Source: an uncultured bacterium | GTDB lineage: Bacteria; Patescibacteriota; Minisyncoccia; Phycocordibacterales; Phycocordibacteraceae | Length of the DNA: 64,000 nucleotides | Direction: 5' to 3' | NCBI GenBank assembly: GCA_903825105.1 | Contig: CAIJZI010000006.1 | Coordinates: forward strand, 1,399 to 65,398 | Part shown: positions 55,988 to 63,667 of the stretch, piece by piece | Layout: each line of letters begins with the position of its first letter | Numbering within the stretch: the stretch's first letter is position 1 | Program-made: the position numbers and the translations under genes | Notes under the pieces: model-generated | What the model was told of the DNA's origin: nothing | Databases searched by the model: none | Seen by the model: the letters and a program-made list of their open reading frames with translations, nothing else

Positions 55988-57034
55988 ATGAAGAAACAGA
56001 CAAAAACAGTGACTTTTTCATTTGACAGTGCTGCCTTGGTGAAGCGCCTTTTAGCTGCCACTCCAGAGCGTGCGCGCGGCGTTATTATCGAGCGTTTTGG
56101 CCTTGGGACGAATCCTGAACGCGAGACACTTGAAGCGATCGGTGACCGCTCGAGCATCACGCGTGAGCGTGTCCGCCAGATCGAGGCTGCAGGTCTCGAC
56201 GCGATTCGCGCGAGCAAAGTTTTTAAAGAATCGAGGGTTGCTTTTGATGAGATTGTTAAGTACATCCACTCGCTCGGAGCGATGGTTCCTGAAGAGGCAC
56301 TCCTCGCTGGATTTGGAAAAGATGAAAAGAGTCGTAACCGATTCCGTTTTTTCCTTATGCTCGACTCCGCTTTCATTCGTGAACGCGAGACCAATGACTT
56401 CCTCGCGCGTTGGCATGTTGACGCAGGGACAGCGAAGAGCATCCACGACGCCCTCTCTAAACTCTATTCAAAGTTGTCAGACGATGAGGTGATTACCGAA
56501 AGCGACATTCTCGATCGCTTCCTCGACGAGCTTAAAAGCGTGAACGACGCATACAAAAATGAAGAAGTGTTGAAACGATGGCTATCGCTCTCGAAGCACA
56601 TCGGTAGCAATCCACTTTCTCAGTGGGGTAAGACGACTGCGCCAGCGATTCGTATTAAGGGTATTCGCGATTATGCGTATCTCGCTATCAAGAGAAACGG
56701 CGCACCGATGCACTTCTCTGATGTTTCAAAAGCGATCGGCACACTCTTTTCTAAAGAGGCACACATCGCGACGACACATAACGAGCTTATTAAAGATCCT
56801 CGCTTTGTTCTTGTTGGTCGCGGCCTCTACGCGCTCTCTGAATGGGGATATGCTCCGGGGGTGGTACGCGATGTAATCCGCGAGACACTCGACAAGAATG
56901 GCCCGATGAAGAAGGAAGAAATAATGACTCATGTGAAGAAAGCTCGCTTTGTGAAAGACAATACGATTCTCGTTAACTTAAACGATTCACATTACTTCAA
57001 GCGCTTGAAAGACGGAAGATATTCAGCAGTGTAA
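55988..57034 (+). CDS. Hypothetical protein with N-terminal sigma-70 region-4-like HTH
   Basis: 'TLEAIGDRSSITRERVRQIEAAGLDAIRAS' matches the sigma-70 r4 'T.EE.G..F.VTRERIRQIE.KAL.KLR' pattern; rest of the protein unassigned. Confidence 0.45.
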   Translation: MKKQTKTVTFSFDSAALVKRLLAATPERARGVIIERFGLGTNPERETLEAIGDRSSITRERVRQIEAAGLDAIRASKVFKESRVAFDEIVKYIHSLGAMVPEEALLAGFGKDEKSRNRFRFFLMLDSAFIRERETNDFLARWHVDAGTAKSIHDALSKLYSKLSDDEVITESDILDRFLDELKSVNDAYKNEEVLKRWLSLSKHIGSNPLSQWGKTTAPAIRIKGIRDYAYLAIKRNGAPMHFSDVSKAIGTLFSKEAHIATTHNELIKDPRFVLVGRGLYALSEWGYAPGVVRDVIRETLDKNGPMKKEEIMTHVKKARFVKDNTILVNLNDSHYFKRLKDGRYSAV

Positions 57035-57054
57035 GATTCAATAATAAGTTATTA

Positions 57055-57088
57055 AGCACCCGTGTTCATAAACACGGGTGCTTTTTGA
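57055..57088 (+). terminator. Intrinsic terminator
   Basis: GCACCCGTGTT-CAT-AAACACGGGTGC-TTTTTG. Confidence 0.65.
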
Positions 57089-57100
57089 TATACTGAAAGA

Positions 57101-58528
57101 ATGGCGCCTCCAAGTAAAGATAAAAAACCAGAAAAAAAGCCAGAAAAAAAACCTGAACCAAAAAAAGATTCAAAAAAAAGTGGGGGGTTAAAGTTGCCGT
57201 ATTTCGACGACATTAAAAAGTACAATGATAAGTTAGTTGAAAACACCGGCATTCGGTTGAGTCCATGGCTTATATTCATTGTTGGTACTGTTATTCTCAT
57301 CCTTGGATTTCTCATCGCAGGGAATATGGTGTCGCTCGCGCTCTCGATCGCACTTTTCTTGGCGCCACTCTGGTTGCCGGTTCTCCTCCTTGGCGGAGCA
57401 TCAGCGCTCGGGATTATTTTAAAACGCTCTGAATTTATCTTTTCTCAAAAAACAATTTTGCTTGAGATAAAGCCGCCTCGCGACTTGGTGAAGACACCGC
57501 TCGCGATGGAAGCCTTTCTCTCTAATATGAACATCGGTTCTGGCGAGGGAACCTGGTATGCAAAGTCGCAGGGTAAGGTTCGCCCGTGGTGGTCACTTGA
57601 GATCGCCTCGCTTGAGGGCCAAGTACATTTCTTTATTTGGACGCGAGTAATTTTTAAACCGGTTATTGAAGCGCAGTTGTACGCGCAGTATCCAGGCGTG
57701 CAGGTTGTCGAAGCGCCTGACTATACCCGATTTATTTCTGCAGATCCTGAAGAATTTGGCTCGTGGGGCTGTGATTTTATTCATGTCGACAAAGATCCGA
57801 TACCGATTAGAACCTATATTGAATACGGGCTCGATAAGGTGCAGAAGGAACCAGAACAGGTCGACCCACTCGCGAACATTATTGAATTTATGGGCTCACT
57901 TGGGAAAGGAGAATATCTCTGGCTCCAATTTGTGATCAGAATGCACAAGGGCGAGAAATATAATAAATTAAATGCGAAAGGCAAGGTGTATACATGGACC
58001 GATGAAGCAGGAGAATTGGTAAATGAAATTCGTGCTGCGGCGAAAGATAAAGATGCACCTGGCCCAGGAATGCCAACTAAAGGTCAGGCAGATAAAATTG
58101 CTGCGATTGAGAGAAATGTTTCAAAACAAGCCTTCGATGTTGGCGCACGCGGGATTTATATCGCGAAGAAAGAGTCGTTTAATGCGGCACGCATACAAGG
58201 GATAATAAGTATGTTCAATGTCGTGAGTTCGAAGGGTTGGAATGGGCTTCGCCCGACGGGGTGGATGACTATGTTTAGTGATTACCCGTGGGAATTCGGC
58301 GTAGATAAATTAAAAAATGCGGTGAGAAGGGCAATGGTTGAAGCGTATCGCCGTCGACAATTTTTCTTCGAGCCATTTTCATTTGGTGTTGCGAAGGACA
58401 AAATAATGGTGATGAGTACCGAAGAGATCGCGACAGTATTTCACATCCCATCTCGCGCGGTAGAGACGCCAACCTTGGGCCGTATCCAGTCAGCGACGAG
58501 CGAGGCCCCGAGCAATCTGCCGGTATAA
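57101..58528 (+). CDS. Hypothetical membrane protein with Lys/Pro/Glu-rich N-terminus
   Basis: 'KKPEKKPEKKPEPKKDSKK' followed by two TM helices and a large soluble domain. Confidence 0.45.
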   Translation: MAPPSKDKKPEKKPEKKPEPKKDSKKSGGLKLPYFDDIKKYNDKLVENTGIRLSPWLIFIVGTVILILGFLIAGNMVSLALSIALFLAPLWLPVLLLGGASALGIILKRSEFIFSQKTILLEIKPPRDLVKTPLAMEAFLSNMNIGSGEGTWYAKSQGKVRPWWSLEIASLEGQVHFFIWTRVIFKPVIEAQLYAQYPGVQVVEAPDYTRFISADPEEFGSWGCDFIHVDKDPIPIRTYIEYGLDKVQKEPEQVDPLANIIEFMGSLGKGEYLWLQFVIRMHKGEKYNKLNAKGKVYTWTDEAGELVNEIRAAAKDKDAPGPGMPTKGQADKIAAIERNVSKQAFDVGARGIYIAKKESFNAARIQGIISMFNVVSSKGWNGLRPTGWMTMFSDYPWEFGVDKLKNAVRRAMVEAYRRRQFFFEPFSFGVAKDKIMVMSTEEIATVFHIPSRAVETPTLGRIQSATSEAPSNLPV

Positions 58529-58530
58529 CT

Positions 58531-59457
58531 ATGGATAAAGTGAAGCGAAATCTTTCGTTAGTAATAGCTTTTGTCTTAAAACATAAAATAAAGTTCTCTA
58601 TCGGATTTGCTTTTGTCGTTATACTTTTTAGTGTTTATTATTCTCTCTTGGCTCCGCCAAGAAATTTCCCGTCAGGGAATATCGTGATTATCGCACAGGG
58701 GACATCAGCGCCGGATGTGGCCAGTGAGCTCGCTCGTGCGCATATTATTTCTCACTCTGGAGTACTGCGTTTTATTCTTCGTCTCTCGGGCGAGAGCGAG
58801 CGAATACATGTCGGCGCATATCGTTTTGCATCGCCAGAAAATGTGTGTGTTGTCGCTTATCGCCTCATCGTGGGCGATTATGGTCTGCCACTCGTTCGTC
58901 TCACTTTCCCCGAAGGGGTGACGGTGCGTGATATCGCCGCACAAGTGGCAGATAACTTTCCATCCATTTCTGCAGAGAGTTTTGGAGAAGAAGCAAAAGC
59001 GTATGAAGGGTATCTCTTCCCAGATACTTATTTTTTCCCTTCGGGCACTGAAGCATCGACCATTCTTTCTGCTTTGCGAAATAATTTTAATTCAAAAACA
59101 GCGTCGTTATCTGGAAAAGTTTTGTCATCAGGGCACTCACTTTCAGACAGTATTATTATGGCGTCGATTATTGAAAAAGAGGCGAATACTGACAAAGATC
59201 GCCATATCATTTCTGGCATTCTCTGGAGCCGGCTCGCTATCGGGATGCCACTTCAGGTCGATGTCGCGCGCGAGACTTATACTCACAAAGGCCTGCCGAG
59301 AGAGCCGATTTGTAATCCGGGGCTTGAATCAATCAAAGCCGCGCTCGAGCCGACGAAGACGAATTATCTTTATTATCTCACCGGCAGAGACGGCCTGATG
59401 CACTACTCCACCACCTTCGCTGGTCATCAGGCGAATGTACGAAAGTATTTGAATTAA
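58531..59457 (+). CDS. mltG: Endolytic murein transglycosylase MltG (YceG-like)
   Basis: N-terminal TM; 'MASIIEKEA' and 'THKGLPREPICNPGLESIKAALEPTKTNYLYYL' match the YceG core. Confidence 0.7.
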   Translation: MDKVKRNLSLVIAFVLKHKIKFSIGFAFVVILFSVYYSLLAPPRNFPSGNIVIIAQGTSAPDVASELARAHIISHSGVLRFILRLSGESERIHVGAYRFASPENVCVVAYRLIVGDYGLPLVRLTFPEGVTVRDIAAQVADNFPSISAESFGEEAKAYEGYLFPDTYFFPSGTEASTILSALRNNFNSKTASLSGKVLSSGHSLSDSIIMASIIEKEANTDKDRHIISGILWSRLAIGMPLQVDVARETYTHKGLPREPICNPGLESIKAALEPTKTNYLYYLTGRDGLMHYSTTFAGHQANVRKYLN

Positions 59458-59522
59458 ATCGCGAGGTTCGACCTCACGGGAAGGAGATAGTCATACATTG
59501 ATGAATGTGATTAGATACAGTT

Positions 59523-60467
59523 ATGAACGCGAAGGGCAAGAAAATATTTGTTGGATTATCTGGCGGAGTGGACTCGGCGGTCTCTGCTGCACTGCTCAAA
59601 AAGGCAGGCGCCCTCGTGACCGGTGTTTTTATTAAAGGCTGGTACCCGGAGGGGATGCCGTGCACTTGGGCCGAGGAACGCCGCGACGCGATGCGAACAG
59701 CGGCGCGGCTCCAGATCCCTTTCCGTACCCTTGACGCGAGCGCGGAATATAAAAAGAGCGTGATTGACTACCTGCTCGCCGAATATCGCGCGGGGAGAAC
59801 GCCCAATCCTGATGTGATGTGCAATAAGGAAATAAAGTTCGGCGTCTTTTATCGCTATGCGCTTAGTCAGGGCGCTGACGCGATCGCGACCGGGCATTAT
59901 CGAAGTGGTGAAAAGAATCAAAGTTATTTTCTTTGGGCAGTGCCAAAAGAAATTTTGTCAAAAACATTTTTTCCGGTGGGTGAAATGAAAAAGGAAGAAG
60001 TGCGCAAACTCGCAAAAAAATTCAACATCCCCGTTTCAGAAAAGAAGGATAGCCAAGGAATCTGTTTTCTCGGCGCAGTCTCGGCAAAAGAATTTTTGAT
60101 AAAAGAATTGGGAACTGACAACCCTGCGCTCCTTTACACCCTTGGTCAGAGAGTCTCATCTCTAGGTGGAGGCGAGAGACAGTATGTCGTTGGGAAAAAT
60201 GTTGAGAAAAAAGAATTAATAGTGAGTAAGAGTAGGCAGCAGGAGACAGTTTCAGAAATAAAATTCACTGACGCGAATTGGTTTAGCGATCAGACGAATG
60301 CCGCTACCGCACAATGCCGTTATCGAGGGCGCTTTACGCCGGGGAAGATAGAAGGCGAGCGTTTTATAGCCTCAGAGCCGCTTCAAGAGATCCCCACGCC
60401 CGGGCAGTCAATTGTCTTTTATGATGCTGGTGGCGAACTCGTCGGAGGTGGTATTATTACTGAATGA
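59523..60467 (+). CDS. mnmA: tRNA-specific 2-thiouridylase MnmA
   Basis: PP-loop 'VGLSGGVDSAVSA'; 'ATGHY' motif; catalytic Cys region 'SQGICFLG'. Confidence 0.8.
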   Translation: MNAKGKKIFVGLSGGVDSAVSAALLKKAGALVTGVFIKGWYPEGMPCTWAEERRDAMRTAARLQIPFRTLDASAEYKKSVIDYLLAEYRAGRTPNPDVMCNKEIKFGVFYRYALSQGADAIATGHYRSGEKNQSYFLWAVPKEILSKTFFPVGEMKKEEVRKLAKKFNIPVSEKKDSQGICFLGAVSAKEFLIKELGTDNPALLYTLGQRVSSLGGGERQYVVGKNVEKKELIVSKSRQQETVSEIKFTDANWFSDQTNAATAQCRYRGRFTPGKIEGERFIASEPLQEIPTPGQSIVFYDAGGELVGGGIITE

Positions 60468-60874
60468 AACATAAGCGCTTCTGGATCGCCGCCTCCATCA
60501 TTGCTTGTATCGTCATTATCGGCTTTGTGCTTTCGGTCCCGCACACGCACGATGTAAAAACATCCTTGAATAAAAATGATGCCACTGCTGTTCCGGTGGT
60601 CGCTCTTCACGATTCTTTTAAAAAAGGAGTACACACGATTACTGGCTCGATAGAAGTGCCGAATGCGTGCACACTCGCCACAGCGAATGCGACACTTTCA
60701 GGCGATGCGTCGAGTACACAAAAAATCGTTGTACAAGTTTCTGTGCCAGCTGATGAGGGTATGTGCCTACAAGTCCCGACGAAAATAAATTTCGGGGTGA
60801 AACTCTCTGCACCAGCACACCTGCCGATTGAGGCGACGATAAATGGGAGTGAGGCTTCGACCACTCTTTTATAA
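60464..60874 (+). CDS. Hypothetical membrane-anchored/secreted protein
   Basis: N-terminal TM 'FWIAASIIACIVIIGFVL'. Confidence 0.4.
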   Translation: MKHKRFWIAASIIACIVIIGFVLSVPHTHDVKTSLNKNDATAVPVVALHDSFKKGVHTITGSIEVPNACTLATANATLSGDASSTQKIVVQVSVPADEGMCLQVPTKINFGVKLSAPAHLPIEATINGSEASTTLL

Positions 60875-60877
60875 ATT

Positions 60878-61717
60878 ATGACGACGCTCCCGATCATCAC
60901 AAAAGCTGATGGTTCAAAAGAACATTTTGATCCGGAACGACTTACCGTCTCGCTTGAGCGATCAGGCGCGAGCGAATATTCTGCACAGAAAATTACTGAT
61001 TCGATTACCAGCACGATAGCGCCAGGCGCTTCATCAAAAGAGATTTATACGCGCGCCTTCTCACTCCTTCGTAGCGAAGCCCGCCCGGTCGCCGCGCGCT
61101 ACGCACTGCGTCGCGCACTGCTCGAGCTCGGACCCTCTGGGCACCCCTTTGAAGATTTCATCTCGCATCTCTATCGAAAAGAAGGTTGGAAGGTAGAGAC
61201 GCGGAAGATATTGCAGGGGAAGTGTGTTGCGCACGAAGTCGATTTCTACGCATCACACCCGGAGCGCAATATGTATATCGCCGCAGAGCTGAAATATCAC
61301 AATGATCCGGCATATAAAACAGATTTGAAAGTTGCTCTCTATGTAAAAGCTCGTTTTGATGACATCTTCGCATCAGATGAAGAGGTGCGATCACACCATA
61401 TCGATCGAGGGTTACTTGTAACGAATACGAAATTTACTTCAGAGGCGATCGCGTATGCAGAGTGCGCGGGCGTCGAACTCCTCGGTTGGGGGCACCCGGA
61501 TGAAAATAATCTTTTTATGCGGATGAGCCGAATGAAAGTGTATCCGATTACCGCCCTCACCGGGCTCTCGCGCGCAGAAAAGAGGTTGCTTATCGAACAG
61601 GGAACAATCGCTGTTGATGAAATCCTGCAGAACCGCAAGGCGCTCGATGTCTGTCACTTGTCTCCAGCGCAAGTCGGGGAGATTGTCGCCGAAGCGAACG
61701 GCCTTCTTGAACTATGA
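60878..61717 (+). CDS. ATP-cone domain fused to Mrr-like (PD-(D/E)xK) restriction-endonuclease domain
   Basis: N-terminus 'ITKADGSKEHFDPERLTVSLERSGAS…' fits the ATP-cone pattern. 'HEVDFYAS…IAAELKYH' fits the Mrr_cat D…ExK core. Confidence 0.55.
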   Translation: MTTLPIITKADGSKEHFDPERLTVSLERSGASEYSAQKITDSITSTIAPGASSKEIYTRAFSLLRSEARPVAARYALRRALLELGPSGHPFEDFISHLYRKEGWKVETRKILQGKCVAHEVDFYASHPERNMYIAAELKYHNDPAYKTDLKVALYVKARFDDIFASDEEVRSHHIDRGLLVTNTKFTSEAIAYAECAGVELLGWGHPDENNLFMRMSRMKVYPITALTGLSRAEKRLLIEQGTIAVDEILQNRKALDVCHLSPAQVGEIVAEANGLLEL

Positions 61718-62202
61718 AATTTTCAACCGGATCTTTTATCGCAGGTGTGATGCTCGGAGTGCTCCTCGCTGGTGCATGGTTCTTAAGTGGTAATCCGCCG
61801 ACACTCTCGTCGCTCTCGCCGTCATCTTTTTCTTTAGCGACAAGCACCGAGTCTTCTTCAGCAATTCAATTGGGCCAAAAAAGTGATGCGCTTTCTGTTT
61901 CGAATCAGTCGTTTGGCGCCACAGTTACTATTGAGTCAGTCACGGTGCCGCCACCGGGCGTGTGGGTCGCGGTACGCGAAGTAAATGGAAATACGCTCGG
62001 CAATGTGCTCGGCGCTGAACGAGTCGCTGGCCCAAGAAGCAATGTCTCGATTTCTCTTCTTCGCAATACTGAACCGAATCATCTCTACGCAGTCGAGCTC
62101 TACCGCGACGACAACAGTGGCGCATTCGATCCGTTCGCGAATAGTACTTATATAGACTTTGACACCGGAAACCGCGTTATTGTTTATTTTTCAACCAATT
62201 AA
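61714..62202 (+). CDS. Hypothetical membrane-anchored protein
   Basis: TM 'FIAGVMLGVLLAGAWFL' followed by a beta-rich domain. Confidence 0.4.
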   Translation: MKFSTGSFIAGVMLGVLLAGAWFLSGNPPTLSSLSPSSFSLATSTESSSAIQLGQKSDALSVSNQSFGATVTIESVTVPPPGVWVAVREVNGNTLGNVLGAERVAGPRSNVSISLLRNTEPNHLYAVELYRDDNSGAFDPFANSTYIDFDTGNRVIVYFSTN

Positions 62203-62204
62203 TT

Positions 62205-62981
62205 ATGGCAAGACGCTCATCAACCTTTGATCCAAACTCCGGCGATCCATTTAAGGTGAGTCGTTCGAAGATTGATATGTTTTCAGAATGCCGCCGTTGT
62301 TCGTATCTCGATTTAAAACTCGGTGTGAAGCGGCCTTCAGGCCCATCATTCACCTTAAATAATGCGGTCGACGAATTATTAAAAAGAGAATTCGATATTC
62401 ACCGCGAGAATAAAACAACACATCCGCTTTTAAAAAAGTACGGACTCGATGCGGTACCGCTGGCTGATGAACGAATGGACGAATGGCGCGACGCGCTTCG
62501 CCGCGGCATTGCCTATCTCCACAAACCGACCAATCTTCTCGTGCGTGGCGGCATTGACGATGTGTGGGTGAATCCCGCAGGCGAACTCATTATTGTTGAT
62601 TATAAAGCGACGAGTAAAAAACTGGGCCCGAGTTCTGAAGACGATCTCTATGATTCGTATAAAAGGCAGATGGAAATTTATCAATGGCTCTTTCGTAGAA
62701 ATGACTTCGCGGTGTCGCCCGTGGGTTACTTTGTTTATGTAAATGGAAAATCTGATGCAAAAGCCTTTGACGGTAAACTCGAATTCGATATCGAGCTCAT
62801 CCCCTACGCCGGTAGCGACGCTTGGGTCGAGCCGGCGATTTATGATTTAAAAGAAATGTTAATGAGCGACGAGATCCCACCGATCGGTACCTCCTTTGGC
62901 GGCGGCCCCTGCGACTTCTGTACCTATCGCGAAGCCGCGGGCAAAAAACTGCAAGAATTACATAAAAATCATAAAGCATGA
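62205..62981 (+). CDS. Cas4/RecB-like PD-(D/E)xK nuclease with four-Cys cluster
   Basis: 'GGIDDVWVNPAGELIIVDYKA' (D…DYK) and 'QMEIYQ' (QxxxY); Cys pairs 'CRRC' at the N-terminus and 'CDFC' at the C-terminus. No CRISPR context. Confidence 0.6.
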   Translation: MARRSSTFDPNSGDPFKVSRSKIDMFSECRRCSYLDLKLGVKRPSGPSFTLNNAVDELLKREFDIHRENKTTHPLLKKYGLDAVPLADERMDEWRDALRRGIAYLHKPTNLLVRGGIDDVWVNPAGELIIVDYKATSKKLGPSSEDDLYDSYKRQMEIYQWLFRRNDFAVSPVGYFVYVNGKSDAKAFDGKLEFDIELIPYAGSDAWVEPAIYDLKEMLMSDEIPPIGTSFGGGPCDFCTYREAAGKKLQELHKNHKA

Positions 62982-63667
62982 ATGTGAGAATCGATCCGTC
63001 GTGGGAGGAAAGGCTGAAAGAAGAATTCGAGAAGCCATATTTTAAAGAGCTGACGGAGTTTGTGAAGAATGAATATAAAAATGAAATCGTCTATCCGGCG
63101 CCTGGGTTTATCTTCCGCGCTTTTGATTTGTGTCCATTTGAAAAAGTAAAAGTCGTGATCTTAGGTCAAGACCCGTATCACGGGAAGGGCCAGGCGAATG
63201 GCCTCGCATTCGCTGTTGATGAAAAAATAACTGTCCCGCCATCTTTGCAAAATATTTATAAAGAAATTCAAAGCGATTTTGCTGTGCCCTGCGTAGCTTT
63301 TAGCGAAGCAGGGGCGAAGAAGAGTAGTCTTGAACATTGGGCAGAGCAGGGCGTTTTACTTCTTAATGCAACGCTGACCGTTCGCGCGAACATCGCTGGC
63401 TCGCATCAGGGTAAAGGCTGGGAACTTTTTACCGATGCAGTTATTAAAAAACTTTCAGACGAGCGCGAGAATCTCGTCTTTATCTTGTGGGGGAATTATG
63501 CGAAGGCGAAGGGCGCGCAGATTGATCGAGAGAAACATCTCGTTCTCGAAGCGCCGCACCCATCGCCCTTTTCTGCCTACAGCGGCTTCTTCGGCTGTAA
63601 ACATTTTAGTAAAGCGAATGAGTATTTAATCGTTCAGGGAGAGACACCAATCGATTGGCTCTCGTAA
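62978..63667 (+). CDS. ung: Uracil-DNA glycosylase (family 1)
   Basis: 'VVILGQDPYHGKGQANGLAF' and 'HPSPFSAYSGFFGCKHF' are the UNG catalytic motifs. Confidence 0.85.
   Translation: MNVRIDPSWEERLKEEFEKPYFKELTEFVKNEYKNEIVYPAPGFIFRAFDLCPFEKVKVVILGQDPYHGKGQANGLAFAVDEKITVPPSLQNIYKEIQSDFAVPCVAFSEAGAKKSSLEHWAEQGVLLLNATLTVRANIAGSHQGKGWELFTDAVIKKLSDERENLVFILWGNYAKAKGAQIDREKHLVLEAPHPSPFSAYSGFFGCKHFSKANEYLIVQGETPIDWLS

Follow-up and report, generated by a model that had tools for sequence, protein, structure and literature searches.

Organisation of the four-gene region and its transcription unit

The window, by which we mean the whole 64,000-nucleotide stretch of DNA that was analysed, contains four co-oriented genes between positions 60878 and 63667 of the plus strand. 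The source organism is a tiny, Kaiserbacteria-like member of the Paceibacteria, within the candidate phyla radiation (CPR). Stops and starts of the four genes overlap or nearly abut: the first and third junctions are overlaps of 4 nt, and at the second junction a gap of 2 nt separates the genes. The products are, in the same order, an ATP-cone/Mrr-type/AF1548-like nuclease, a DUF7282 protein, a Cas4-like nuclease and a uracil-DNA glycosylase (UNG). The original prediction had described four same-strand genes with overlapping stops and starts, and all four open reading frames were recovered. The genes, domains and flanking features were as follows.

57054..57083, plus strand: terminator-like hairpin of 13 pairs, 3' of the sigma-like gene
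57101..59457, plus strand: p475 and MltG/YceG, upstream members of the tightly packed co-oriented run and of the syntenic block
59523..60467, plus strand: MnmA (tRNA 2-thiouridine synthase), whose stop overlaps the p136 start
60464..60874, plus strand: p136, small and membrane-anchored; a variable passenger that was seen in just 31 loci
60878..61717, plus strand: ATP-cone/PD-ExK (Mrr_cat)/AF1548-like C-terminal helix-hairpin-helix (HhH) protein, 279 aa
60893..61123, plus strand: ATP-cone domain, aa 6-82, with residue conservation in a 91-sequence family alignment
61136..61489, plus strand: PD-ExK nuclease domain, aa 87-204, with E120, D122, E137 and K139 invariant (91/91)
61490..61714, plus strand: AF1548-like C-terminal helical domain, aa 205-279
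61714..62202, plus strand: DUF7282 protein with an N-terminal membrane anchor, 162 aa (DUF7282 36.8 bits; N-terminal hydrophobic stretch)
62205..62981, plus strand: stand-alone Cas4/Dna2/RecB-type PD-(D/E)xK nuclease, 258 aa (D118/D119, D132-Y-K134, Q155..Y159)
62978..63667, plus strand: family-1 UNG, 229 aa (GQDPYH and HPSPFS motifs)

Although the four genes of the proposed unit are real, the boundary drawn around them was arbitrary, as the packed run begins at MnmA or further upstream. In particular, the co-oriented run starts at least at MnmA (59523) and probably as far up as p475 (57101), and the transcription unit of the four genes is likely bounded upstream by the hairpin at 57054-57083; no comparable hairpin was found between there and 63667. 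The genes of this DNA-maintenance set probably share a transcript with MnmA, and perhaps with p475 and MltG too. We found no Pfam match for p475 and no family match for p136.

The UNG assignment was secure, with scores of 315 bits for NF003589 (cut-off 223) and 272 bits for TIGR00628 (cut-off 186) and both motifs present in the translation. The membrane protein that had been proposed between the two nucleases was likewise recognised by its DUF7282 match and its hydrophobic anchor. In relatives, its slot was occupied by MgtC, by an opposite-strand Mur ligase or by nothing; the small membrane proteins among the maintenance genes are passengers.

Domain structures of the two nucleases

The ATP-cone nuclease has a three-domain architecture that is fixed throughout its family. 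An ATP-cone fused to a restriction-endonuclease-fold domain had been predicted; this list was correct but overlooked the third, AF1548-like C-terminal domain. Pfam Mrr_cat (PF04471) scored 28.6 bits against a gathering cut-off (GA) of 21, and the catalytic residues were intact. Pfam ATP-cone (PF03477) scored 24.7 bits (E=3.4e-5) and narrowly missed its GA of 25.8, yet it matched 76 of 87 diverse homologues (E<=1e-3), which upheld the assignment at the level of the family. Residues 94-275 aligned with PDB 1y88 (AF1548) with an E-value of 3e-22, and the alignment included the C-terminal domain PF22357; the homology to AF1548 therefore spans both the nuclease domain and the C-terminal helical domain, the latter of which resembles the helix-hairpin-helix domains found at the RAD51 N-terminus and in Pol X. 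The AF2 model showed a pLDDT of 96.4 and a pTM of 0.91, and the ATP-cone fold, a β-hairpin lid and a four-helix bundle, was present in the N-terminal domain.

We compared the protein with known systems. AF1548 of Archaeoglobus fulgidus shares Mrr_cat and the AF1548-like C-terminal domain, but it is a structural-genomics protein of 199 aa without an ATP-cone, and the match names the fold of the window protein, not its role. The GOS paper predicted AF1548 to be restriction-endonuclease-like, which was the sole functional prediction found; literature on ATP-cone nucleases and AF1548 yielded no experimental or functional study of any family member, while a crystal structure exists for one truncated homologue. 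Mrr proper, the type IV restriction enzyme, was ruled out by the housekeeping synteny and by the lack of a match to the Mrr_N winged helix, the N-terminus being the ATP-cone. Of the features of NucS/EndoMS, the window protein has neither the N-terminal domain nor a PCNA/clamp motif, and the HMM of archaeal Hjc was touched by only 3 of the 87 family members. JGI labels some members of the family Holliday junction resolvase.

The conserved positions of the ATP-cone in the 91-sequence alignment were K9 (91/91), G12 (91/91), K/R21 (89/91), Y/F75 (91/91) and K/R78 (90/91). Upon alignment with NrdD of Prevotella copri (PcNrdD), whose nucleotide-contacting residues have been reported (PMC11226230), K9, K/R21, Y/F75 and K/R78 mapped onto Lys7, Tyr83 and Arg87. 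As these predicted binding residues are conserved, the nuclease may plausibly be gated by nucleotides. The cone is shared with class I-III ribonucleotide reductases (RNRs) and NrdR, but their outputs are a reductase or a zinc-ribbon DNA binder, whereas the output domain of the window protein is a nuclease. Position 10, directly after the hairpin lysine K9, also differs; it is Ala or Ser throughout the family, whereas RNR cones carry an Arg that serves as a phosphate ligand. ATP-cones work via nucleotide-driven oligomerisation (PMC5794259, PMC9110341). By analogy with RNRs and NrdR, the cone may bind ATP or dATP and shift the oligomeric state of the nuclease, and DNA incision would then be allowed solely when the nucleotide or energy state is suitable.

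The missing Arg, the sub-GA score of the window protein and the JGI label would also agree with a degenerate ATP-cone that no longer binds nucleotides and is left with a purely structural or dimerisation role in a constitutive structure-specific nuclease, such as one acting on Holliday junctions or flaps. We consider this improbable. The near-invariance of K9, K/R21, Y/F75 and K/R78 across 91 sequences at ~35-45% identity is hard to reconcile with the lack of a ligand, and the ATP-cone HMM still recognises most of the family. Additionally, AF1548 and other short homologues do without the domain, which marks it as an add-on, like regulatory cones.

The gene at 62205-62981 had been described as a Cas4/RecB-like four-Cys nuclease with no cas genes nearby, and both points were confirmed. 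PDDEXK_1 (PF12705) scored 39.4 bits, and HMM, fold and catalytic motifs all placed the protein in the RecB/Cas4/Dna2-like superfamily. The cysteine pairs CRRC (C29, C32) and CDFC (C236, C239) were present, and all four cysteines were invariant in 69 relatives. No cas genes occurred among the neighbours at 47.5-64 kb, all of which were identified, or among the neighbour families that recur in CPR loci. Identity with Cas4, the CRISPR adaptation nuclease, was rejected, as the curated Cas4 model (TIGR00372) scored 27.2 bits, far short of its cut-off of 65, and the cysteine pattern was 2+2 (CxxC...CxxC) instead of the 1+3 of Cas4 (C...CxxCx5C). In a weak alignment with SSO0001, the third C-terminal Cys was absent from the window protein. 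The PADLOC Cas4 models gave sub-threshold scores of 23-28 bits, and Pfam Cas_Cas4 matched 16 of 39 relatives. A direct PDB sequence search returned nothing at E<=1, and a PDB profile search returned only Cas4 alignments, which were non-significant. The nearest known class comprises the Fe-S-cluster nucleases Cas4, Dna2, AddB, AdnAB and EXO5, from which the protein differs in being stand-alone, with neither a helicase domain nor cas neighbours, and in its cysteine arrangement. It is probably a metal-cluster nuclease that acts as a 5'-3' ssDNA or flap exonuclease.

Conservation of the neighbourhood in CPR relatives

The co-occurrence of the genes in relatives, on which the original prediction had hinged, was found within a much longer block. 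Its order is LeuRS, sigma-like, p475, MltG, MnmA, ATP-cone nuclease, Cas4-like nuclease, Ogt (in some loci), uracil-DNA glycosylase (UDG) and AlaRS, and it is kept from LeuRS to AlaRS down to ~40% identity. The arrangement of the four genes is far from chance and was seen again in dozens of genomes and metagenome contigs that are independent of one another. Across three identity bins, the ATP-cone nuclease had MnmA on its upstream side in 31/31, 11/11 and 30/35 loci and the Cas4-like gene on its downstream side in 27/27, 9/9 and 26/36; among distant loci, the sigma-like gene was kept in 21/26. The adjacency of the two nucleases is thus kept no better than that with MnmA, and in some relatives the two are separated by unrelated genes, one of which is a Mur ligase on the opposite strand; these data therefore gave no evidence for a dedicated two-nuclease system. 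As synteny is equally strong with unrelated genes, adjacency alone is no proof of a shared pathway.

The median identities in 32 syntenic loci were 69% for the ATP-cone nuclease, 62% for the Cas4-like protein, 71% for UNG, 61% for MnmA and 47% for MltG; the three DNA-maintenance proteins were conserved at least as well as MnmA and well above MltG. Ogt was inserted in 16 of 56 loci. UDG was found in 43 of the 56, as family 1 (35 loci) or family 4 (8 loci) and never as both; for UNG, counts by tblastn were more reliable than those by ORF picking, which missed some UNG genes (e.g. in L021). Where the Cas4-like gene was absent (L077, L098 and L112), a family-4 UDG directly followed the ATP-cone nuclease. 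A repair theme is visible in the CPR neighbourhood, in the Ogt insertions and in the exchange of family-1 and family-4 UDG in one slot. An HD/YfbR-like 5'-deoxynucleotidase lay directly 3' of the ATP-cone nuclease in three CPR loci (L096, L104 and L113).

With moderate confidence, we favour the reading that the region belongs to a co-oriented and deeply conserved housekeeping block of Paceibacteria (CPR/Patescibacteria) that carries several independent DNA-maintenance enzymes. It is based on the domain architecture, the intact catalytic and nucleotide-binding residues, the conservation, the deep synteny and the absence from mobile elements. The members of the block would be an ATP-cone PD-ExK endonuclease that ends in an HhH DNA-binding tail, a Cas4/Dna2-type nuclease, UNG and, in many relatives, Ogt. 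The target of the ATP-cone nuclease would be chromosomal DNA, such as repair or recombination intermediates, and not that of invaders. Against this reading stand the equal synteny with MnmA and the sigma-like gene, the interrupting genes, the window cone just under its Pfam cut-off with Ala or Ser in place of the Arg beside K9, and the loci outside CPR described below.

More tentatively, the ATP-cone/PD-ExK/HhH protein may be the first ATP-cone effector to act outside ribonucleotide reduction, namely a DNA endonuclease whose incision is allosterically switched by ATP/dATP or energy state, core in Paceibacteria and common in Bacteroidota. In CPR, it would make the incisions of DNA repair or recombination depend on whether nucleotides are available for resynthesis; possible roles are cutting downstream of abasic sites made by UDG or resolving branched intermediates with the Cas4-like exonuclease. 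To our knowledge, CPR bacteria have no de novo nucleotide synthesis. If the ATP-cone does gate the nuclease, this domain would sense nucleotide pools not only in dNTP synthesis but also in DNA cutting, and the gated nuclease could fill one gap in the sparse CPR repair toolkit.

Family members outside CPR and the question of defence

The ATP-cone nuclease family is the part of this locus that deserves attention, as it is widespread, with thousands of members, and its putative nucleotide-binding and catalytic residues are intact. Among the matches listed, we counted >2,500 homologues on the CPR side, the best 120 of which were all at least 74% identical, and >7,500 on the Bacteroidota side; the family formed 381 clusters at 50% identity (E<1e-30). 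The metagenome scan used a 12-sequence alignment as its query, and the taxonomic spread of the branch at 40-46% identity was inferred only from synteny.

The ten non-CPR loci had no Cas4-like or UDG neighbour beside the ATP-cone nuclease. Instead, a run of three genes comes directly after it in Pontibacter, in Criblamydia and in two metagenomic/MAG loci of the Bacteroidota branch, one of them named Cyclobacterium. The run encodes a beta-CASP MBL nuclease, a protein of the thymidine/AMP-phosphorylase family (TIGR02645, 589 bits) and a PRPP synthetase (NF005537, 404 bits); in Salegentibacter only the beta-CASP gene follows. Outside CPR the family lies in stress islands, and genes for PPK2, Usp, Hsp20, P-type ATPase and glycolysis are often close by. 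This context points to nucleic-acid turnover or energy sensing, not repair.

It is possible, though rather unlikely, that the CPR block represents frozen synteny only. The four genes would then be functionally independent, and the ATP-cone nuclease would act in nucleic-acid turnover and salvage controlled by energy or nucleotides, degrading DNA or RNA at low ATP or dNTPs and so supplying nucleotide recycling. The run outside CPR, the stress-related genes close by, the 5'-deoxynucleotidase that adjoins in three CPR loci and the equal synteny of MnmA and the Cas4-like gene are in agreement with this, and such a role would suit CPR bacteria, which rely on salvaged nucleotides. However, none of the beta-CASP, phosphorylase and PRPP synthetase genes was found in its vicinity, either in the window or in 37 CPR genome loci, where the neighbours Ogt, UNG/UDG4 and the Cas4-like nuclease are repair-type and not salvage enzymes. 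The HhH tail and the NucS/Hjc-like core are, moreover, typical of structure- or lesion-specific DNA nucleases. The UDG family-1/family-4 swap and the beta-CASP/phosphorylase/PRPP synthetase context elsewhere provide two contrasting functional hypotheses.

The original prediction had left a choice between a housekeeping repair operon and a defence unit; the housekeeping repair neighbourhood was favoured, and the defence alternative was disfavoured by the lack of phage or viral matches and by the fixed synteny. As a nucleotide-sensing anti-phage or abortive-infection unit, the ATP-cone would detect a (d)NTP pool altered by phage and free the Mrr-type nuclease, with the Cas4-like protein as its partner. 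The Mrr-type catalytic domain fits this idea, as do weak matches in PADLOC-DB v2, which comprised only a 13.5-bit partial match to the ZorD nuclease domain and the sub-threshold Cas4 matches. PADLOC-DB v2 gave no full-length model match and nothing for the DUF7282, UNG and p136 proteins. No match to the ATP-cone nuclease was found in phages by tblastn or in a scan of IMG/VR, and only 2 of 72,556 plasmids matched. In all of the ~100 CPR loci long enough to show flanks, the gene was highly conserved and held a fixed housekeeping position. Can2, Card1, Cap4 and NucC are also ligand-gated PD-ExK nucleases, but their sensors are CARF or SAVED domains in place of the ATP-cone predicted here, and the window nuclease has no cyclase or CRISPR partner and behaves in its genomic context as a housekeeping gene. 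A defence function for the four genes was rejected as very unlikely, and the cluster should be regarded as ordinary chromosome housekeeping and not be tallied as a defence system or a CRISPR-related orphan. The GC content of the four-gene region was also normal, whereas the actual R-M/defence island of the window lies elsewhere and looks different. This separate island occupies ~37.8-51.5 kb, with low GC at ~34-46 kb and a serine recombinase, and lies 3' of a tRNA cluster at 30.3-32.6 kb.

Domains and conserved residues of the ATP-cone nuclease

The fusion of an ATP-cone to a restriction-endonuclease-fold domain, as claimed in the original prediction, was confirmed. Pfam matched the window protein with Mrr_cat at 28.6 bits (gathering cut-off, GA, 21) and with ATP-cone at 24.7 bits (GA 25.8), and an alignment of 87 diverse members revealed ATP-cone in 76, Mrr_cat in 75 and AF1548-like_C in 39. 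The last of these raises the domain count to three, compared with two in the earlier prediction; AF1548 (PDB 1y88), a structural-genomics protein, aligned to residues 94-275 (E=3e-22), a likeness that spans the nuclease part and the C-terminal AF1548-like_C domain. A full-library HMMER search matched 1,036 representatives of 50%-identity clusters (E<1e-30 in 381), and almost every one of the 150 top representatives listed was approximately 280 aa long and aligned end to end.

In a 91-sequence alignment, K9, G12, E120, D122, E137, K139, R159, D162 and N183 were invariant, and K/R21 (89/91), Y/F75 (91/91) and K/R78 (90/91) were nearly so. In the family profile, K9 corresponded to the hairpin Lys and K21 to the helix-1 Lys of Prevotella copri NrdD and E. 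coli NrdR, while Y75-R79 aligned with the Tyr83/Arg87 region of these proteins. Nucleotides are held in P. copri NrdD by Lys7, Arg8, Tyr83, Arg87 and Arg91 (PMC11226230), whereas the position equivalent to Arg8 is Ala or Ser in the nuclease family. The architecture and fold are established, with intact catalytic and putative nucleotide-contact residues. Taken with the domain matches, these residues identify a PD-ExK endonuclease that is intact and carries a tail of helix-hairpin-helix type for DNA binding, as well as an ATP-cone that is apparently ligand-competent; with the contact residues retained, a degenerate, non-sensing cone appears improbable.

The comparison nucleases include FokI, AspBHI and other restriction nucleases, and structural likeness was also found to CARF- or SAVED-gated PD-ExK nucleases. 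The ATP-cone nuclease is a variant joining known kinds, namely ligand-gated PD-ExK nucleases and ATP-cone-regulated proteins, and the variant itself is new. Our literature search turned up no experimental study of any member; one paper touches the family, a 2007 prediction of AF1548 as restriction-endonuclease-like. Being widespread and uncharacterised, the nuclease is a clean testable target, although no first-order surprise.

Gene order in the window and in CPR relatives

Genes of the region
55988-57034, sigma-like 348-aa protein; Sigma70 region-4 the only match
57101-58528 (+), p475, 475-aa membrane protein, no Pfam match (ORF listing)
58531-59457 (+), MltG (ORF listing)
59523-60467 (+), MnmA (ORF listing)
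60464-60874 (+), p136, no family match (ORF listing)
60878-61717 (+), ATP-cone nuclease (ORF listing, Pfam)
61714-62202 (+), DUF7282 protein (36.8 bits)
62205-62981 (+), Cas4-like nuclease (PDDEXK_1, 39.4 bits)
62978-63667 (+), UNG, family-1 (NF003589, 315 bits; cut-off 223)

The four genes originally described as a same-strand cluster (60878-63667) were all present and tightly packed, but they do not bound a unit, as the run extends upstream to p475. The plus-strand ORFs from 57101 to 63667 were near-contiguous, with a single sizeable gap of 65 nt 5' of MnmA, and the sole strong terminator-like hairpin (13 pairs, 57054-57083) lay directly 3' of the sigma-like gene; the co-oriented unit is thus longer than the four genes, which make up its 3' half.

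The names of homologues assign the source bacterium to Paceibacteria/Kaiserbacteria, a part of Patescibacteria (CPR). We compared 38 genome loci and 80 metagenome loci by tblastn and clustering of all ORFs, and neighbours were assigned by Pfam and NCBIfam. The common CPR order (brackets, optional or alternative) was LeuRS, sigma-like, p475, MltG, MnmA, [p136], ATP-cone nuclease, [DUF7282 / MgtC / opposite-strand Mur ligase], Cas4-like, [Ogt], [UNG or family-4 UDG], [HD_4], peptidases, AlaRS.

Neighbours in loci binned by how closely their ATP-cone nuclease matches that of the window (identity >=60%; 50-60%; 30-50%)
Cas4-like <=2.5 kb downstream: 27/27; 9/9; 26/36
UNG <=4.5 kb downstream: 22/22; 8/8; 11/27
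MnmA <=2.5 kb upstream: 31/31; 11/11; 30/35
Sigma-like upstream: 25/26; 11/11; 21/26

The genes co-occur in relatives, so the original prediction escaped refutation on this ground, and synteny is deep. The association of the nuclease with Cas4-like and UNG was no stronger than that with unrelated housekeeping genes. Co-transcription of the two nucleases is not obligatory, because some Kaiserbacteria-like genomes carry an opposite-strand Mur ligase between them (L006 8826-10094 (-), L018, L019, L021, L047). Synteny of the sigma-like gene and p475 was equally deep by tblastn across CPR loci; they are a conserved CPR pair between LeuRS and MltG.

The original prediction left the choice between a housekeeping repair operon and a defence/repair unit; the evidence favours the former. 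In the 32 loci with the full set of seven genes, the ATP-cone nuclease, Cas4-like and UNG had median identities to their window counterparts of 69%, 62% and 71%, compared with 61% for MnmA and 47% for MltG, and the nuclease is under strong purifying selection. Its behaviour is non-mobile: the family was found in none of 50,697 phage records, nor in IMG/VR, and in 2 of 72,556 plasmids. PADLOC gave weak partial matches only, and regional GC was normal (0.47-0.49). These several lines point to housekeeping and make a defence unit very improbable. All components belong to annotated families; as a whole, the cluster is a conserved stretch of CPR chromosome of an ordinary kind.

Cas4-like nuclease and repair-type neighbours

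The predicted CRRC and CDFC cysteines were present in the window translation (C29/C32 codons at 62289-62300, C236/C239 at 62910-62921). PDDEXK_1 matched 39/39 diverse relatives and Cas_Cas4 also 16/39, with D118/D119, D132-Y-K134, Q155, Y159 and all four cysteines invariant. In a weak alignment to SSO0001, the C-terminal "C-x2-C" corresponded to the leading pair of cysteines in the Cas4 motif "C-x2-C-x5-C"; the last Cys of that motif was lacking, and an extra N-terminal Cys (CxxC) was found instead. Whereas Cas4, AddB and Dna2 have C...CxxCx5C, the window protein has CxxC...CxxC (2+2); zinc, or else an Fe-S cluster of a variant type, may occupy its metal site. Given the PDDEXK_1 matches and cysteine layout, we assign a stand-alone nuclease of the Fe-S-type RecB/Cas4/Dna2 clade. 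CRISPR Cas4 identity was rejected, as the curated equivalog scored 27 bits, well short of its cut-off (65), and the cysteine pattern differs. Conservation is high, as for the ATP-cone nuclease: at least 7,852 matches were found, and the best 120 were all >=77% identical.

In 16 of 56 loci, an 85-aa Ogt (TIGR00589, 86.6 bits) separated Cas4-like from the glycosylase. Loci lacking UNG often had a family-4 UDG (TIGR00758, 189-195 bits) in its slot; one or the other occurred in 43/56 loci and both in 0/56, and among the CPR relatives compared they were never found together within 5 kb. The exchange looks like in-place non-orthologous replacement. In loci without Cas4-like (L077, L098, L112), family-4 UDG followed the ATP-cone nuclease directly. 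Family-4 UDG occupied the UNG position at L036 10142-10747 and L098 8355-8957, and further such loci were L061, L062, L069, L077, L089, L095, L096, L105, L112 and L113.

Neighbourhoods outside CPR and the proposed role

The Ogt insertion and the UNG/family-4 UDG slot argue for a real DNA-repair flavour, and we somewhat favour a housekeeping role in nucleotide-gated DNA maintenance. From established ATP-cone biology (PMC5794259, PMC9110341, PMC11226230), binding of ATP or dATP would change the oligomeric state and thereby switch the nuclease, a logic analogous to CARF- or SAVED-gated PD-ExK nucleases. Judging by the CPR neighbours, the substrate would be chromosomal DNA in repair or recombination, Cas4-like may process 5'-3' ends or flaps, and removal of damaged bases would fall to UNG or UDG4 and Ogt.

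The ten non-CPR loci (Salegentibacter, Pontibacter, Criblamydia, Sporocytophaga, Flavobacterium, Cyclobacterium and four metagenomic/MAG Bacteroidota-branch loci) had a Cas4-like or UDG neighbour in 0/10. Directly after the ATP-cone nuclease, four of them carried, in this order, genes for a beta-CASP MBL nuclease, a protein of the thymidine/AMP-phosphorylase family (TIGR02645, 589 bits) and PRPP synthetase (NF005537, 404 bits); in Salegentibacter, the beta-CASP gene alone followed. Beta-CASP-type islands lay at L039 1972-6597, L040 6995-11602, L123 5001-9666, L125 4501-9171 and L038 7980-10194. Other non-CPR loci had P-type ATPases, PPK2, Usp, Hsp20 and glycolytic genes close by. With the beta-CASP set, such genes make up a recurrent stress/energy island without Cas4-like or UDG. 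These neighbours, together with an HD/YfbR-like 5'-deoxynucleotidase directly after the nuclease in three CPR loci, are the main evidence for a tentative alternative, in which the CPR association is synteny only and the nuclease acts in energy- or nucleotide-state-controlled nucleic-acid turnover or salvage, not repair.

We also observed that a P-type cation/heavy-metal ATPase gene with HMBD domains overlapped or lay near the ATP-cone nuclease in several non-CPR loci (L122 808-4282; L078 6222-9364; L040 131-2839; downstream in L124 and L127).
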